4,655 nt of DNA. Source: a virus (lineage: Duplodnaviria; Heunggongvirae; Uroviricota; Caudoviricetes). The stretch is taken from the IMG/VR virus record IMGVR_UViG_2671180458_000007. The stretch is one strand, 5' to 3'. This document shows positions 1-4,655 of the stretch, piece by piece. The translations under genes were made by a program, and so were the position numbers. The notes beneath the pieces were generated by a model that was given only the letters and a program-made list of their open reading frames with translations, was not told the DNA's origin and searched no databases. Position 1 is the first letter of the stretch. Every line of letters starts with the position of its first letter.

Positions 1-310
1 ATTTTGCGTTATCGGGAATATCGGGAAGTGACCGCCGCAGCCGTTCCGGCTTCGTCCACTGGTAAGTATTTTTCGCGCTCTCCCTCCGTTGTTGAGAACG
101 GCGGCGGTATGCCAGCAACGCAAGGACGCATGTTCGTATGTTGCACATATCCACGCCGTTAAGCTCAATACCATCACGGCGCATCACCTCAGCAACCACA
201 CGCGCATAATTTTCGGCGGTCACGCTGTCCGGCTGCGTGGCCTGTTCGTCAGCCTGCTGGCTGATTCCGGCGACGCGGCGGATTAATCCCAGTATTTCGG
301 CTTCTGTCAT
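1..310 (-). CDS. Hypothetical protein, partial (N-terminal 103 aa in window; 3' end lies beyond the left edge)
   Basis: ATG is the reverse complement of 308-310 and the frame stays open to position 1 (begins MTEAEILGLIRRVAGISQQADEQ...). A G-rich Shine-Dalgarno-like GGGGG sits 4-9 nt upstream. It follows the terminator and promoter cassette downstream of the capsid gene. No recognisable motif; lying downstream of a capsid gene it could be a head-tail connector or adaptor, but that is speculation. It is not in the supplied ORF track because it has no stop inside the window. Confidence 0.5.
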   Translation of the reverse strand, partial: MTEAEILGLIRRVAGISQQADEQATQPDSVTAENYARVVAEVMRRDGIELNGVDMCNIRTCVLALLAYRRRSQQRRESAKNTYQWTKPERLRRSLPDIPDNAK

Positions 311-463
311 TGTGCCCCCATCGCGCTGGTGAAGAAAACAAGCTCAGATTTTTTGTAAAGAATCTGTCACGCTAAAAGATGTCGAACAAAAATTAACCAC
401 AACCATCATCTTTTTTGCATCAACCACATTAAAAACAACAGGTTACACACATGATGATGATGA

Positions 464-561
464 CGATAAAATCACAAAAATGCGCTTTTTTCCGCGCCGC
501 CCGCCCCGTGTTCATACCCACCCCACCGGGAGGACCCGCAAAAAAGGCGGCTGGTGCCGCC
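464..561. repeat. Copy A of a ~100 bp conserved intergenic cassette (second copy at 3001-3098)
   Basis: By-eye alignment: aaaaatgcgcttttttccgcgccgcccgccccgtgt...cccaccccaccgggaggacccgcaaaaaag (A) against aaaaaatgcgcctttttccgcgccctcccgccccgtgt...cccaccccaccaggaggacccgcaaaaaag (B). Both copies sit immediately 3' of a minus-strand stop codon and end in a terminator hairpin. Confidence 0.7.
538..561 (-). terminator. Rho-independent terminator after the protease-capsid gene
   Basis: On the minus strand: GGCGGC-ACCA-GCCGCC hairpin (6-bp GC stem, 4-nt loop) followed by TTTTTTG, starting 6 nt after the TGA stop at 568-570. Confidence 0.7.
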
Positions 562-567
562 TTGTTG

Positions 568-2457
568 TCAGAGTGAATCTGTCCCGCCTGATTTGACCAT
601 ACCGCGATAATCCAGAGCTGCCACACCTGCATCAATACGGACTTTCCAGGCCACGCCGTCAACGATAAAACCTTCCTGCTGTTCAAGGTAAGGCTCGTCA
701 TTGCCATCAAGATAAGCCACCTCGATTGTGTCCGTTCCCTGTGCGGAAAGCATGTACCATTGTTTTTCGCTGATATCATCAAGGCGGGGATCGACGATGA
801 TATCAAGTAGCTTGTGGTACGGGTTAAAGATCCCGCTGTTTTTATCAGCCCCGAAAGGTGCGGTTGAGTTAATCATCTGCAACGCGCGATCTTCCAGTGC
901 TGCCGGAACTAAAAGGAATTTAGGCGCAATATTCAGCACTTCGCCATTTTTGTCCTTCTGTGTGCGCATCAGGTGACGTGCTGCACTAAGTCCCGGTGTT
1001 GTCAGTCCTGCTTCAATCAGGTTGCTGTGTTTTTTGTCAAACAGCGTTATTCCGTCAGAAAGTTTTACGTTGCCTGTAAGCACCAGATTAACCAGATTTC
1101 CCACCGTTCTTGATGCTGCACGGCCCATAGCCATTGGCACCGTTGATAACTGATCAAGGTCATCATTGATTATCGCCTGGCGGGTAATGCTGAAAATATT
1201 CCCGTAAGTAGCCAGCGCGATGGGTTCACCGCGATCGCTGGTGGTGATGTATTTATATTCTGCCCCTTCCGGAACTTTGTTTAACGTTGAGAAGCCATTC
1301 ATACCAACGCGGCGGGCTTCCCGGAAGTTTGAAAGGGAACCTTTTTTCGTCCACTGGCGGAATGTTTCGCCGCTGTGCTCCCAGCCTGCAAGCACTGATT
1401 TTTCAGCGCCACCAGCAAGGATATCGGTAAAATCGCTGCTGCTGTGGGTGAATGCCGCGTTTACTATCTGCGAGCGTGTGCTGTAGCTGCCCGTGCTTAT
1501 ACCACGATGGGTTAATGATGCCTGTGCCATATCGAAAAGGCTCATCATGGCGTAAGGATTACCGCGTTCGGCCCGTTCGTGACCAAGACGCGCATTAAGC
1601 CCCTGACGCATGGCATCGCCAGTTATATTGCCGTTATCCGTGTACGCGTAGTAAAGATTTGCGGGGGTGGTTTTGTTTGTTGGCGTTGATTCTTTACCCA
1701 TAGCGAGTAAAAGGCGTTCGCGTGCATTCTCAACGCTACATTCTGAATCCGCAAGACAACTTATAGCCAGGTCGTTATATCTTCCGTTGAAGGTGCCAAA
1801 CAATTCACGGATGCCGTTAAGTCGTTCCTGTTCGCCACTGCCAGTTTTCTGGCTGATCATGCTTTTAATTTTTTCCGGCATATTTGAAAAATCTCCGATT
1901 CGTTTTGATTCAATTCGGGCCATTGCTGTAATCGCGGGTATAACCTCATCTGCGAAACCGTTAGCCTTACACTCATTGCCATCCATCCAGGTTTCCGCCT
2001 CCATCATGGAGGTGATTTCCTGTTTGCTCCTGCCCGTTCTTCCGGCATAGGTTTCTGCCATCGTGTCGCCCAGCTTGTCCATCAGATCAGCAAAGCGGCG
2101 AACGTCGCCCGACACTCCGGCAGTAACACCACGGGGGGCATGTATCATCATCATCGCGTTTTCAGGCATAACGATATGATCTCCACACATGGCAATAAAC
2201 GAGGCCATAGAAGCCGCCATGCCTTCAATGTGTACGATTTTTTTTGCCGGATGATTTTTCAGAGCGTTATAGATAGCCAGCCCTTCAAAGATGTCGCCAC
2301 CAGGTGAATGGATGCGAAGATGGATTTCAGACGCATTACCACACGCGTTGATCTCGTCAGTAAGTGCCGATGCTTTTACACCGTACCCGCCGATCTCGTC
2401 ATAAATGCGCACATAGACAACATCTGCCATAGCCTTAATGGAAAACCATGTTTTCAT
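568..2457 (-). CDS. Prohead protease / major capsid fusion protein: N-terminal ClpP-family (S14) serine protease domain, linker or scaffold-like region, C-terminal putative major capsid domain (629 aa)
   Basis: Long intact ORF. The N-terminal ~190 aa carry ClpP signatures visible in the translation: HSPGGDIFEGLAIYNAL (ClpP INSPGG...AG.AIYD motif), GMAASMASFIA (active-site Ser motif G.AASMG), MMIHAPRG (active-site His motif MIHQP). The remaining ~430 aa are too long for a protease alone. Assigning them to a capsid domain rests on known ClpP-type prohead protease-capsid fusions in prophages, not on a motif I can verify by eye. ATG at 2455-2457 is preceded by AGGGG about 7 nt upstream and overlaps the upstream ORF stop (ATGA). 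Confidence 0.85.
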   Translation of the reverse strand: MKTWFSIKAMADVVYVRIYDEIGGYGVKASALTDEINACGNASEIHLRIHSPGGDIFEGLAIYNALKNHPAKKIVHIEGMAASMASFIAMCGDHIVMPENAMMMIHAPRGVTAGVSGDVRRFADLMDKLGDTMAETYAGRTGRSKQEITSMMEAETWMDGNECKANGFADEVIPAITAMARIESKRIGDFSNMPEKIKSMISQKTGSGEQERLNGIRELFGTFNGRYNDLAISCLADSECSVENARERLLLAMGKESTPTNKTTPANLYYAYTDNGNITGDAMRQGLNARLGHERAERGNPYAMMSLFDMAQASLTHRGISTGSYSTRSQIVNAAFTHSSSDFTDILAGGAEKSVLAGWEHSGETFRQWTKKGSLSNFREARRVGMNGFSTLNKVPEGAEYKYITTSDRGEPIALATYGNIFSITRQAIINDDLDQLSTVPMAMGRAASRTVGNLVNLVLTGNVKLSDGITLFDKKHSNLIEAGLTTPGLSAARHLMRTQKDKNGEVLNIAPKFLLVPAALEDRALQMINSTAPFGADKNSGIFNPYHKLLDIIVDPRLDDISEKQWYMLSAQGTDTIEVAYLDGNDEPYLEQQEGFIVDGVAWKVRIDAGVAALDYRGMVKSGGTDSL

Positions 2458-2648
2458 AGCCAGACCCCTAACGTTGCCCTGTACCAGTATTCAACCGCGC
2501 TGCGTGTGATTTGTCCTTTCGTGGGTACTGGCATACCCGGGTGATTATCTTTGATGAACTGCTGATAGCGTTCGATCTTCTCCATAGTTCCGGCGTCTAT
2601 GTGTACCGTGGCACTTTTATCCGGCTTTCTGGTGTTGTTCTCTGGCAT
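2454..2648 (-). CDS. Small hypothetical protein (64 aa), translationally coupled to the protease-capsid gene
   Basis: The ORF track gives 2454..2681 (75 aa, MMPVNQ...), but that start has no Shine-Dalgarno. The internal ATG at 2646-2648 (MPENNTRKPDKSATVHIDAGT...) has GGAGG (reverse complement of 2656-2660) 7 nt upstream, so I prefer it. The TGA stop overlaps the capsid ATG (ATGA at 2454-2457). Function unknown. Confidence 0.6.
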   Translation of the reverse strand: MPENNTRKPDKSATVHIDAGTMEKIERYQQFIKDNHPGMPVPTKGQITRSAVEYWYRATLGVWL

Positions 2649-2722
2649 AAATCCGCCTCCGTTTTGATTAACGGGCATCATTATTGATCGATAAAAGTAA
2701 TAGATAAATCATTTTCTACCTG

Positions 2723-2750
2723 AAAATCAGATTATGATTTTTCTGATTAT
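2723..2750. promoter_or_regulatory. Inverted repeat, candidate operator in the leader of the capsid operon
   Basis: aaaatcaga (2723-2731) and tctgattat (2742-2750) form 8/9 inverted arms around a 10-nt AT-rich spacer, 75-100 bp upstream of the small-ORF start. Confidence 0.35.
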
Positions 2751-2843
2751 TCTCAGAGAGGCAAAGTTATTGACGCATTTTTGCCATTGAAGCAGTATTA
2801 AGACTCGTCATCCTGGCGATAAAAACTCCTTTGTCGTGTAAAA

Positions 2844-2879
2844 GCGCCTCCGGTAACAGCAATCGGGGGCGCTTTTTTT
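2844..2879 (+). terminator. Terminator-like hairpin plus U-tract, oriented on the plus strand, inside the capsid-operon upstream region
   Basis: Plus strand: GCGCCUCCG (2844-2852), 11-nt loop, CGGGGGCGC (2864-2872) gives a 9-bp stem with one G-U pair, followed by TTTTTTT (2873-2879). On the minus strand the same hairpin is followed by only TTTT. No convincing plus-strand gene ends here. Confidence 0.5.
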
Positions 2880-2903
2880 GCGCCTGTTTTTTGTAAATGT
2901 TTT

Positions 2904-2917
2904 CGGGAACGTTCCGG
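2904..2917. promoter_or_regulatory. Palindrome cGGGAACGTTCCgG, candidate dimeric regulator binding site
   Basis: Perfect 10-bp palindrome GGAACGTTCC at 2906-2915 with partly symmetric flanks. It lies in the promoter region between the upstream terminator (3076-3098) and the capsid operon and is absent from the otherwise similar region A. Confidence 0.35.
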
Positions 2918-3000
2918 TGATGAACAAAAAACAACCTGATTCGACACTAAAAATTTTTATTTCTCAACATATCAATAACTTATAGTGGTGGTGATGGTGC

Positions 3001-3098
3001 CATAAAAATCAAAAAATGCGCCTTTTTCCGCGCCCTCCCGCCCCGTGTACAGGCCCACCCCACCAGGAGGACCCGCAAAAAAGCCGGATTGCTCCGGC
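3001..3098. repeat. Copy B of the ~100 bp conserved intergenic cassette (first copy at 464-561)
   Basis: See copy A. It sits immediately 3' of the stop of the 3106-3378 gene and ends in a terminator hairpin. Confidence 0.7.
3076..3098 (-). terminator. Rho-independent terminator after the small regulator-like gene
   Basis: On the minus strand: GCCGGA-GCAA-TCCGGC hairpin followed by TTTTTTG, 8 nt after the TAA stop at 3106-3108. Confidence 0.7.
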
Positions 3099-3105
3099 TG
3101 TGTGA

Positions 3106-3378
3106 TTAGCTGTCCTGGTAATTGCGCCATATTTCATCACCAGCACCATCTATACCCATTTCGGCACAAGTGCGATTAACTGCATTTCTCAGGTCTCCGA
3201 AATTATCAGGCGGCTCCGGTGGCCTCTGTGCCTTCCTGGAACATTCCAGCCGTCGCATCGTGATGTGATGCCGTTCCTTGTCTGTCTCCACCAGCATCAT
3301 GACTTCACCCCATCGCGCCGCCGCCCTCCGGTAAAATCCTTTCGCTTCGAGTTCTTCCGCTATGCGGTCATGTACCAT
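3106..3378 (-). CDS. Small basic protein (~90 aa), possible PerC-like transcriptional regulator
   Basis: The ORF track gives 3106..3498 (130 aa), but that start overlaps the ssb 3' end by ~110 nt. The internal ATG at 3376-3378 (MVHDRIAEELEAKGFYRRAAARWGEVMMLVETDKERHHITMRRLECSRKAQRPPEPPD...) lies 10 nt after the ssb stop and has GAGGGGG 5-6 nt upstream. The PerC-like call rests on recalled resemblance of the N-terminal region and is unverified. Confidence 0.55.
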   Translation of the reverse strand: MVHDRIAEELEAKGFYRRAAARWGEVMMLVETDKERHHITMRRLECSRKAQRPPEPPDNFGDLRNAVNRTCAEMGIDGAGDEIWRNYQDS

Positions 3379-3388
3379 CGTCACCCCC

Positions 3389-3799
3389 TCAGAACGGAAT
3401 ATCATCACCGTAAGGGTCATCGCCTCCCGCTGGTGGCTGATTACCCTGTGTGCCTGTGGTTTTGCGTCTGTTCCCGCCTGGTCGCACCGTTTTCGCACTG
3501 ATTACGCTGTCGGCAATGACCTGATAACCCTGACGCGTCTCCCCGTTCTGTCCGGTCCACTGGCTTATCTGCATCACGCCGGATACGCTGATTACGTTGC
3601 CTTTCTCATGTCCTGCCAGTTGGTCGGCCTGTTTGCCAAATGCGATGACCGATAACCATAACGTCGCCTGTCCGTCCTGTGCCTGACTGCATGGCAGTGA
3701 TACCGCCATACGCGCCAGCGTCATCGGTGTGCCCTTGCTGGTCTGTTTTACCTGCGGGTCGTCCACCAGCCGCCCGTAAGCGGCTATCTGTGCTGTCAT
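3389..3799 (-). CDS. ssb: Single-stranded DNA-binding protein (SSB), compact 136-aa form
   Basis: The translation ends in DPYGDDIPF; the acidic DDIPF terminus is the conserved SSB protein-interaction tail (E. coli SSB ends DFDDDIPF). It is preceded by a Gly/Pro/Gln-rich linker and an OB-fold-like core (LWLSVIAFGKQADQLAGHEKGNVISVSG...QWTGQNGETRQ, compare E. coli [30 protein letters not shown]...KWTDQSGQDR). Good Shine-Dalgarno GGAGAGGTG upstream of the ATG at 3797-3799. Confidence 0.88.
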   Translation of the reverse strand: MTAQIAAYGRLVDDPQVKQTSKGTPMTLARMAVSLPCSQAQDGQATLWLSVIAFGKQADQLAGHEKGNVISVSGVMQISQWTGQNGETRQGYQVIADSVISAKTVRPGGNRRKTTGTQGNQPPAGGDDPYGDDIPF

Positions 3800-4041
3800 G
3801 ATTTCACCTCTCCGGTTTTAACGTTGATGGTTGTTACCTGTTCCGCTTCGGCAATCTCCCGCTCTGTCAGCGTGGCAAAGTTTGCAGCTGCCGTTGTCAT
3901 GAATGCGCTAATCAGTTCGGGATGTGCTTTCGCATATCCTTCCCCGGCGTTGCGGTCGATGATTTTTATCGACACCCTTAACCAGTGTTCCGTCAAATCA
4001 AGGGCGTGCGATTGTGATTTTTTTGTGTGCTTCGCTGTCAT
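3796..4041 (-). CDS. Hypothetical protein (81 aa), translationally coupled to ssb
   Basis: ORF MTAKHTKKSQSHALDLTEHWLRVSIKIIDRNAGEGYAKAHPELISAF... with ATG at 4039-4041. Its TGA stop overlaps the ssb ATG (ATGA at 3796-3799). The Shine-Dalgarno is weak. It is the first gene downstream of the iteron array. Function unknown. Confidence 0.6.
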   Translation of the reverse strand: MTAKHTKKSQSHALDLTEHWLRVSIKIIDRNAGEGYAKAHPELISAFMTTAAANFATLTEREIAEAEQVTTINVKTGEVKS

Positions 4042-4085
4042 AGGCTTTATCTCACAGCAGTAAATTAAAATTTTTGCGTTTTAAC

Positions 4086-4314
4086 CCTTCACCTGTTCAC
4101 CTTTTGATATTTTATCTTTTAATTCATAATGTTAAGGGGTGAACAGTTTCACAAAAACTATTCACCAACTATTCACCACTGTTCACCCTTGAAGCTCAAT
4201 AAACAATCAAAAAGGTGAACAGTGAATAGTTTGGTGAACAGTTCATAAATAACTGTTCACCCTATAATATACTGATATAAAAGATATTTATGACAGAGTG
4301 AACAGTGGTGAACA
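4086..4314. repeat. Iteron array: ~11 copies of TGTTCACC/GGTGAACA (P4 type I iteron sequence) with AT-rich flanks; candidate crr- or ori-like cis replication site
   Basis: Exact or one-mismatch octamers at 4086, 4094, 4159, 4170, 4180, 4254 (TGTTCACC orientation) and 4138, 4214, 4222, 4233, 4297, 4307 (GGTGAACA orientation). Several are spaced 10-11 bp apart. Two ~50 bp imperfect direct repeats (4138-4188 and 4214-4262) each run from GGTGAACAGT to CTGTTCACCC. AT-rich stretches at 4101-4136 and 4262-4296. The array ends 15 bp from the stop of the flanking gene. Confidence 0.8.
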
Positions 4315-4328
4315 GTTATTCCATAAGT

Positions 4329-4655
4329 TTAATTTTTGCTATCGTCATTAGTGACCGATACACATGACGGCATCCAGTCTTCTGATTCCTCCGTCAGTTT
4401 CACGTTTGAACGCAAACCGTGCTTCGTTTTCCGTTTCATATACTCCCTGCCATATTCCGCCATTGCCCCCGGCATATCTTTACCGAAGCGCGTCAGTGTT
4501 ACAGGTTTACCAAACCCATGTGCCTTCATATAAGCCAGATAGGCATGATAGAGATACCTGCGCGGGCTGAATGGCACAATTTCAGCATTACCCACTAACA
4601 GGCCATCACACATTACCGACGACATGAGATAGCCGCAGAAGTCCACCAGCGAATC
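4329..4655 (-). CDS. C-terminal part of a replication protein, probably a P4 alpha-like primase/helicase (partial; 5' end beyond the right edge)
   Basis: The minus-strand frame is open from the window edge (…DSLVDFCGYLMSSVMCDGLLVG...) to TAA at 4329-4331. The first start codon in the window is a GTG, so the real start is presumably upstream of the window. The identity is inferred from context: in P4 the alpha gene is immediately followed by the crr iteron region that its C-terminal domain binds. No primase motif is visible in this fragment. Confidence 0.6.
   Translation of the reverse strand, partial: DSLVDFCGYLMSSVMCDGLLVGNAEIVPFSPRRYLYHAYLAYMKAHGFGKPVTLTRFGKDMPGAMAEYGREYMKRKTKHGLRSNVKLTEESEDWMPSCVSVTNDDSKN

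Follow-up and report, generated by a model that had tools for sequence, protein, structure and literature searches.

Gram-negative phage-inducible chromosomal islands (PICIs) carry int, alpA, pri, PerC alleles and a pair of lambda-like cos sites, and they often have a capsid gene as well (PMC6092414, PMC6739421). A primase of the P4 alpha family and a capsid gene are normal components of these islands (PMC6092414, PMC10085698, PMC10111431); the capsid gene is present in 21 of the 29 reference Gram-negative PICIs (PMC10111431), and ‘capsid morphogenesis’ is one of the five core components by which SatelliteFinder describes Proteobacterial PICIs (PMC10085698). Capsid-forming PICIs (cf-PICIs) are set apart from PICIs by portal, adaptor/connector, HNH, terS and terL (PMC10085698; bioRxiv 10.1101/2022.09.08.507074), and the typical P4 has int, alpA and primase in common with PICIs (PMC10085698). 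The survey of helper-embedded PICIs (HE-PICIs) described integration sites in terminase genes as well as PICIs with a CLP_protease late gene (PMC10111431). Here we analyse a stretch of 4,655 nucleotides from the virus record IMGVR_UViG_2671180458_000007 of IMG/VR (the whole of it is referred to below as the window), which in our judgement probably represents the replication-to-late half of an integrative, cos-packaged Gram-negative PICI of ~10.5 kb, belonging to the EcCICFT073 family and equipped with a protease-capsid fusion gene with a predicted role in capsid morphogenesis.

By its gene content the element is a satellite with its own protease-capsid gene and P4-alpha-type origin recognition, and yet a classical Gram-negative PICI. 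The original prediction, made from the letters of the window, had seen in it a hybrid of P4-like replication and capsid-forming-island-like morphogenesis. This proposal fell, as the gene order and most of the proteins are those of the classical Gram-negative PICI EcCICFT073; as far as its genes tell, the element is a known kind of satellite and not a new hybrid.

Complete copies of the island in Escherichia coli

Every substantial open reading frame (ORF) of the window is located on the minus strand, and the replication protein gene runs on past the right edge. Matches to at least 80% of the window's length were obtained in 50 complete E. coli genomes. The closest copy, 99.1% identical, was found in E. 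coli JNEC-KY174 (locus L001 of our set) at a chromosomal tRNA-Pro site and not in a prophage; a yejO pseudogene and tRNA-Pro/yejM form the borders of the island. Its genes follow the order integrase, hypothetical protein, helix-turn-helix (HTH) regulator, Icd-like pseudogene fragment, YlcI/YnfO, Icd-like, hypothetical protein, DUF4222, primase and the genes of the window. Thirteen of the 15 annotated features are on one strand, the exceptions being YlcI/YnfO and the overlapping Icd-like pseudogene fragment, both situated between the regulator and the replication genes. The integrase of this copy, which adjoins tRNA-Pro and lies outside the window, is a tyrosine-type protein of 413 amino acids (aa) with Arm-DNA-bind_3, Phage_int_M and Phage_integrase domains. 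Another copy (L017, 94.5% identical) occupies the cspD-clpS interval, its limits marked by a 17-bp direct repeat, the two units of which are 10.67 kb apart. Altogether, islands of ~10.5 kb with the same gene order occupy three chromosomal locations (tRNA-Pro/yejM, cspD-clpS and a third site) as well as the interior of a prophage terminase gene; the measured copies span 10.3-10.7 kb, and their integrases differ.

No genes for tail, lysis/holin, portal, connector or terminase are annotated or were detected in the complete copies L001 and L017, and neither portal, head-tail adaptor/connector, HNH, terS nor terL was found in three complete copies or six relatives. Extension of the flanks, one of the checks proposed with the original prediction, brought the integrase into view just outside the window, and neither a portal nor a terminase in the complete genome copies. 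With chromosomal flanks in several genomes (tRNA-Pro by yejM; cspD-clpS), the element is a phage satellite, as had been proposed, and not the head module of an ordinary phage. A terminal integrase with insertion at sites that ordinary prophages do not use, a pri-ori region, the size (about 10-20 kb in the family) and orientation of the island, the lack of tail, holin, portal and connector genes, a capsid gene and a helper-like cos are all features that it has in common with Gram-negative PICIs. In the SatelliteFinder scheme, the window element's copy would be a four-component (‘Type B’) PICI, with Rpp/small terminase missing.

In O157 FDAARGOS_293 (NZ_CP022050.2; L002 13663-23999), an element with a window copy of 95.7% identity is found inside the large terminase gene of a lambdoid prophage encoding Shiga toxin (Stx) 1a. 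This element measures ~10.3 kb and is co-oriented with the terminase gene, which is split into two annotated fragments. The host Stx1a prophage has a fusion gene of its own, which is frameshifted.

The protease-capsid fusion gene

The ORF of 629 aa at 568-2457 (minus strand) was confirmed by family, profile and fold evidence as the fusion of a ClpP-like protease with a capsid protein of HK97 fold, the identity initially suggested for it. Pfam assigned residues 41-173 to CLP_protease (E 3.9e-33) and residues 330-623 to Phage_capsid_4 (E 1.2e-54); the protein scored 889.8 bits with NCBIfam NF045540 (‘ClpP-like prohead protease/major capsid protein fusion protein’; cut-off 475) and also matched the head protease and major head families of PHROG. 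It is laid out as a protease (residues ~1-190), a linker or scaffold-like segment (~190-330) and an HK97-fold capsid domain (~330-629).

A single-sequence PDB search with the fusion returned ClpP chains alone, and a profile was needed to reach capsids. This profile, composed of the C-terminal 329 aa and 12 diverse homologues (13 sequences), matched the solved capsid proteins 8rkc/8rkx (Mu GpT family) and 9jod with E of about 4e-13. An AlphaFold model of the capsid domain, for which the same 13 sequences served as the alignment, reached a pLDDT of 81.8 and a pTM of 0.79; a model of the full fusion with an 8-sequence alignment was unusable (pLDDT 39). Top matches of the capsid domain in Foldseek against the PDB were HK97-fold capsids and encapsulins, including the HK97 and SaPI1 capsids and a cf-PICI capsid (probability 1.00). 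Profile searches and structure prediction, the first of the proposed checks, came out in favour of both an HK97 fold for the C-terminal half and a replication protein at the right edge.

No satellite or phage copy departs from the ClpP-type motifs GxAASMAS (Ser83) and MMMIHxP (His106), and the fusion gene is full length in all satellite copies compared. Besides the window's clade, we have identified a second clade of satellites, islands of ~10 kb with the same architecture and a fusion protein of 637 or 638 aa that is 62% identical. The ratio of nonsynonymous to synonymous substitution rates (dN/dS, Nei-Gojobori) is 0.07-0.25 among copies of the window's clade, 0.15 among those of the second and 0.19 between the two, a pattern by which the gene is evidently kept under purifying selection inside satellites. 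Fusion genes of helper-type phages are 50-55% identical to that of the satellite, the closest phage homologues, in Stx-type phages, being at about 51%, and no phage in the collection reaches 60%. As no phage copy is closer than about 52%, the capture of the gene would be old and its maintenance would have taken place inside satellites, which argues for a selected function, possibly interference.

Both satellite clades are devoid of 28-34 residues of a Pro/Ala-rich linker that follows the protease domain in phage mEp460 (at ~205-215 of the window protein). Fusion lengths in the wider family range from ~618 to 850 aa, and the linker deletion is thus not established as satellite-specific.

Directly upstream of the fusion gene lies a small satellite-specific ORF of 75 aa (2454-2681, minus strand; annotated as 64 aa; phrog_4934, E 9e-51), the stop of which overlaps the fusion gene start. 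Its counterpart in the second clade has 69 aa, occupies the same position (L009 9795-10004) and is 38% identical. The small ORF is always translationally coupled upstream of the fusion in both satellite clades. It has no family annotation, and tblastn found no counterpart in mEp460, in the Stx1a prophage of L002 (outside the embedded satellite) or in the lambda left end. The 75-aa protein may be a partner of the capsid protein.

Replication protein and iteron origin

The ORF at the right edge (4329-4655, minus strand) encodes the C-terminal 108 aa of a replication protein and matches Pox_D5 (E 1.2e-13); its reading as a P4-alpha-like C-terminus was correct. The full gene, taken from the 99.1% identical genome copy, codes for 605 aa that include D5_N, DUF5906 and Pox_D5 and are 50% identical to P4 alpha residues 320-771 (E 1e-162), and the C-terminus matches the solved origin-binding domain of P4 alpha, 1KA8 (E 7.8e-24). 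From these matches, the protein is predicted to be a P4-alpha-like helicase with a winged-helix origin-binding domain. Residues 1-144 gave no alignment to the primase part of alpha and no Pfam match; their sole match is the unannotated family phrog_2850. The protein is annotated as ‘DNA primase family protein’ (L001 18303-20120) and is without a recognisable primase catalytic domain.

The iteron array proposed for this region proved to be real. The predicted replication origin (4094-4314, no strand assigned) contains seven exact and three one-mismatch copies of TGTTCACC, and no other exact copy exists in the window. With one mismatch permitted, the whole window holds 14 copies against 4.4 expected, and 14 was reached in 0 of 200 shuffles. 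The octamer is identical to the ‘ori type 1’ repeats of the P4 record. Two iteron sets of mixed orientation, with inverted symmetry, are placed around an AT-rich spacer directly 3′ of the primase gene, a layout that agrees with published Gram-negative PICI origins (two iteron sets 3′ of pri; PMC6092414).

The octamer was found to track the C-terminal domain of the replication protein. The TGTTCACC iterons are common to the window element, to second-clade PICIs (L009, L013 and L014, downstream of the primase gene) and to the cf-PICI-like vB_KppS-Ant, and occur with domains of 77-97% identity. EcCICFT073 differs in this respect, its iterons resembling CTGTCTACC (L004 11996-12285) and its domain being 33% identical. 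A relative in which an AAA_25 replicase replaces the primase has no TGTTCACC. The comparison also took in L008 11689-12290 and L012 8495-8697. Cross-talk or incompatibility with co-resident P4-like satellites through the shared octamer is conceivable.

As initially noted, sid, psu, delta and int are all missing from the interval that separates the alpha-like ORF from the fusion gene. This interval encodes instead, from right to left, a conserved 81-aa protein of the replication zone (3796-4041, minus strand; phrog_1231, E 1e-49), the single-stranded DNA-binding protein SSB of the same zone (3389-3799, minus strand; Pfam SSB, E 6.2e-16), a PerC-family regulator and the 75-aa ORF.

cos sites and packaging

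A 111-nt repeat is present in two direct copies, at 452-562 and 2989-3099, which are 75% identical. On the minus strand, each of them shows GGGTCCT, the heptamer of lambda cosQ, and, spaced from it much as in lambda, the cosN-like core ACGGGGCGG. The outer copy is part of a lambda-type cos at 343-562 (minus strand), with GGGTCCT at 531-537, the cosN-like core CGGGGCGG at 501-508 and an extension of ~110 nt at the cosB position (343-451); both cosQ and cosN of lambda could be aligned to this copy. The inner lambda-type cos (2989-3099, minus strand) has cosQ at 3068-3074 and the cosN-like core at 3038-3045, and a terminator-like perC hairpin (3099-3082) stands at its start. The helper-like extension at the cosB position is found only in the outer copy, next to the 93-aa gene that ends the element.

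Window positions 343-543 align over 203 nt, at 86% identity, with the sequence that lies upstream of the DUF1441-type small terminase gene in the Stx1a prophage (L002). The outer cos is also 86-89% identical over about 200 nt to sequences of the Stx2a, Stx2d and VT1-Sakai phages, ~4.3 kb upstream of their fusion gene, and positions 2989-3080 match the cosQ-cosN segment of the cos in the Stx1a prophage at 90% identity. The segment 343-562 is likely the packaging initiation site. Since the same phages share the cos and contain the closest phage homologues of the fusion, the apparent helpers would be Stx-converting lambdoid phages. On these comparisons, the packaging site of the satellite stays close to that of the helper, while its capsid gene is old and diverged. 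EcCICFT073 was likewise reported with a pair of cos sites, and a stretch of 258 bp in 11capE is 90% identical to the cos of its helper (PMC6739421, PMC10111431).

Neither Rpp nor a DUF1441/small terminase gene was found in the window's element. As the helper's own cosB-position sequence is kept, an Rpp or small terminase of its own would be unneeded. In some satellites of the second clade, the cos is separated from the 93-aa gene by the gene of a DUF1441 protein (L009 12171-12656; also L010, L011 and L013), which is 65% identical to the small terminase of mEp460 and 47% to that of the Stx1a prophage.

The small ORF and the fusion gene are framed, in both satellite clades, by a pair of cosQ-cosN copies in direct orientation (L009 9412 and 11946; L012 and L014 have another, inverted, at 12304). 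This arrangement suggests that the cos-flanked capsid module is an exchangeable cassette. The putative 12-nt overhangs of the two cos copies differ at a few positions, if the nicks fall as in lambda; the mEp460 record opens with the start codon (ATG) of its small terminase instead of the cohesive end, and the cosN nick positions are not readable from it. Termination at the inner cos would give a genome of 8.1 kb without the capsid module.

Comparison with known satellites

Among the reference satellites with which a comparison had been proposed, the element corresponds to EcCICFT073-type PICIs and to neither the P4-like satellites nor the cf-PICIs. It shares with EcCICFT073 the succession of int, AlpA-like, Icd-like, DUF4222, primase, iteron origin, small ORF, SSB, PerC, small ORF, capsid and the 93-aa gene, together with two lambda-type cos sites, a size of 10-12 kb and the lack of tail and lysis genes. 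Identities to the EcCICFT073 counterparts are 92% for SSB, 91% for the Icd-like protein, 87% for the 81-aa protein, 86% for the 93-aa protein (encoded by the last EcCICFT073 gene), 82% for PerC and 48% for the primase. The two differ in that EcCICFT073 has a lambda-E-type capsid, a decoration protein and RppA, whereas the window element has one ClpP-protease/capsid fusion and no Rpp. EcCICFT073 also has its own cosB, read by Rpp-TerS (PMC6739421), whereas the window element keeps the helper's cosB-position sequence; and of the EcCICFT073 cos copies found by motif search (L004 15529 and 16304) one is inverted, whereas both in the window element are direct.

The position of the L002 copy within the large terminase gene of the Stx1a prophage is the arrangement described for HE-PICIs (PMC10111431). 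In contrast, the closest copy is at the chromosomal tRNA-Pro, and integrases vary among copies.

For the capsid gene, the nearest analogue is Ccm of SaPIbov5. Both satellites are cos-packaged, carry a diverged homologue of the helper capsid protein and depend on the helper terminase through a helper-like cos (PMC5052747, PMC8569155). Ccm was shown in the pentamers of T=4 capsids, whereas the window element is known from its genes alone and its homologue includes the protease.

Proposed life cycle and alternatives

We propose that induction of a lambdoid helper with a fusion-type head module would lead the AlpA-like regulator and the integrase to excise the island. The alpha-like protein would then bind the iterons and begin replication into concatemers, and the DUF1441-type small terminase of the helper, with its large terminase, would recognise the helper-like cos and package the satellite DNA. 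The fusion protein would most likely act as a capsid-morphogenesis factor, built on the helper portal either alone or mixed with the helper fusion, which is the least certain step; the effect could be a change of capsid size or a diversion of head assembly in the satellite's favour. Its role would resemble that of Ccm, the precedent for a satellite capsid homologue, which redirects phi12 capsids and makes up the pentamers when small capsids form (PMC8569155). The helper would supply everything else: portal, head-completion proteins, terminase, tails and lysis. The original prediction that a helper would contribute only tails and packaging functions fails on this point, as portal, head-adaptor/connector, HNH, terS and terL are all missing from the element; judged by its gene set, its head cannot be made without the portal, head-completion proteins and terminase of the helper.

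Genome sizes are compatible with several outcomes. If helper genomes are taken as 44.5-46 kb and the satellite as 10.3-10.7 kb, our arithmetic suggests that four satellites would fill a full-size head, two a T=4-scaled head and one a T=3-scaled head, figures that do not discriminate between these possibilities.

Several points weigh against this account. Support for helper-dependent induction, packaging and high-frequency transfer is only indirect, in the form of the helper-like cos and the helper-embedded copy in L002. In EcCICFT073, the closest relative that has been tested, deletion of the capsid gene c1499 left no visible phenotype with lambda, and packaged DNA was of phage size (PMC6092414); this finding might not extend to the window element, as c1499 encodes a lambda-E-type capsid and not a fusion, yet it lowers the prior for size redirection. 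With neither Rpp nor a small terminase aboard, the element has no feature to account for the packaging of its DNA in preference to that of the helper. Its second cos, in direct orientation, could cause the capsid module to be lost at packaging, and the element offers no explanation of its retention. Attachment sites of the tRNA-Pro copy L001 were not found by exact or short-word matching. The AlpA assignment of the regulator in this copy, a 68-aa HTH protein in the expected position, is weak, with 28% identity to the EcCICFT073 and P4 Vis regulators and no Pfam match at E<0.001; proteins of 68-69 aa in the same position of L009, L010 and L012-L014 carry PF05930 (Phage_AlpA).

The alternative to which we give the most thought, doubtful as it seems to us, is that the fusion is a captured helper late gene without a role in satellite particles, serving as a backup copy, in interference with the helper head or in a function unrelated to transfer. 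Late zones of Gram-negative PICIs are dynamic and capture helper late genes, a PICI capsid knockout is tolerated (PMC10111431), the c1499 deletion was silent, and the module between the two cos copies is cassette-like; against this, two clades of 62% identity both keep a full-length gene with its catalytic residues, a dN/dS of about 0.1-0.2 and the coupled satellite-specific small ORF, and phage copies are too distant for a recent acquisition from those compared (none above about 52%). At the other end, the fusion protein, perhaps together with the 75-aa protein, might build satellite-sized shells entirely of satellite protein on a stolen helper portal, which we regard as unlikely. If it did so, the element would stand for a sub-family between classical PICIs, with shells of helper protein, and cf-PICIs, with a whole head of their own; the linker shortened by 28-34 residues would then be a candidate size determinant, and the direct cos pair would mark an exchangeable capsid cassette. 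To go further and assume a capsid-forming satellite with a complete small capsid of its own, a P4/cf-PICI hybrid taking only tails and packaging from the helper, is in our opinion very improbable. Protease, scaffold-like linker and HK97-fold shell are indeed united in one polypeptide, an HK97-fold capsid and a maturation protease are also present in the cf-PICI EcCIEDL933, and the cf-PICI-like vB_KppS-Ant has a primase of 74% identity with the same iterons. However, cf-PICI membership is refuted by gene content, since the components that distinguish cf-PICIs are absent, the capsid and protease form a single fusion with its relatives in lambdoid helpers, and the gene order is that of a classical EcCICFT073-type PICI.

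A variant of a P4-like satellite in which sid, psu and delta were swapped for a capsid gene has hardly any probability left. It would account for the helicase and origin-binding homology to alpha and for the identical octamer, as well as for a related integrase (35% identical to that of P4) and a Vis/AlpA-type regulator, the small HTH protein at 28% to P4 Vis. These likenesses count for little, as int, alpA and primase are shared by typical P4 and PICIs anyway (PMC10085698). Of the seven P4-like components (PMC10085698), the alpha helicase and type 1 iterons are present, whereas psu-delta-sid, epsilon (Ash), a P4 cos and the CI RNA are not. When all P4 proteins were compared with the whole L001 element by tblastn, only int and ORF88 matched, and sid, delta, psu, epsilon, the cI-region ORF, cII, gop and beta had no counterpart there. 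Nor did we find a P4-type CI/seqA immunity RNA (Rfam C4, isrK), or the P4 cohesive end or any P2/P4 cos in the window: P4 has a P2-type cos, whereas that of the window element is lambda-type and accompanied by a capsid gene of its own. The N-terminal domain of the replication protein is unlike that of alpha, its first 144 aa remaining unaligned to the alpha primase, and most other proteins are 82-92% identical to those of EcCICFT073. A decayed head fragment of a lambdoid prophage merits just as little credence. The Stx1a prophage flanks in O157 FDAARGOS_293 and the lambdoid type of both fusion and cos speak for it, but it is contradicted by other observations: in FDAARGOS_293, ~10.3 kb of DNA have been inserted as a discrete unit into the large terminase gene, which they split, of a prophage with its own fusion gene, the compact architecture with integrase, primase and origin recurs at several chromosomal sites, and the fusion gene shows purifying selection. 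An EcCICFT073-type PICI with a role for its fusion gene in capsid morphogenesis remains the reading that we prefer.

As a discovery, the element carries little weight: capsid-carrying Gram-negative PICIs have been described since 2018 and catalogued in thousands, and this exact element is already annotated in dozens of complete E. coli genomes. Its value is that of a test case for the role of PICI capsid genes, the only reported knockout having had no phenotype. With protease, scaffold and shell in one gene, it would permit a straightforward test of whether a head can be built or resized with only a stolen portal. Moreover, with Stx-converting lambdoid phages as apparent helpers and a PerC-family regulator aboard, mobilisation of the island would bear on gene flow in Shiga-toxin-producing E. 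coli.

Accessory and terminal genes

Rfam was searched with the window at E up to 1 and with the whole element at the gathering threshold, and nothing was returned beyond chance-level matches and the flanking tRNA; PADLOC found no defence-system match among the window proteins.

The terminal conserved PICI gene of the window (2-310, minus strand), encoding 93 aa in relatives, belongs to phrog_1561 (E 2.8e-57); the protein had no match in Pfam, NCBIfam, PADLOC or PDB. We considered it as a candidate for Rpp and rejected this, as RppA is a protein of 144 aa (L004 15660-16094, matching the RppC structure 6hlk) without a homologue in the element. An origin of the 75-aa and 93-aa ORFs as remnants of the helper portal and terminase was likewise rejected, as tblastn gave no match.

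The accessory PerC-family transcriptional regulator is annotated as 90 aa (3106-3378, minus strand; Pfam PerC, E 1.6e-41). Its gene (3099-3388) is an insertion or deletion among the copies: it is present in the window, L001 and L017 and missing in the O157 copy L002, where the alignment skips from 3098 to 3389. Copies from O111, O121 and bovine strains align in two pieces at a coverage of 92-94%, and PerC is probably missing there.

In the window, the frame of the 93-aa gene is open to the left edge without a stop. Its codon 94 (29-31) encodes Ser and is a stop codon in the 99% identical L001. The first 26 bases of the window do not align to L001, but do align to O157-type copies.

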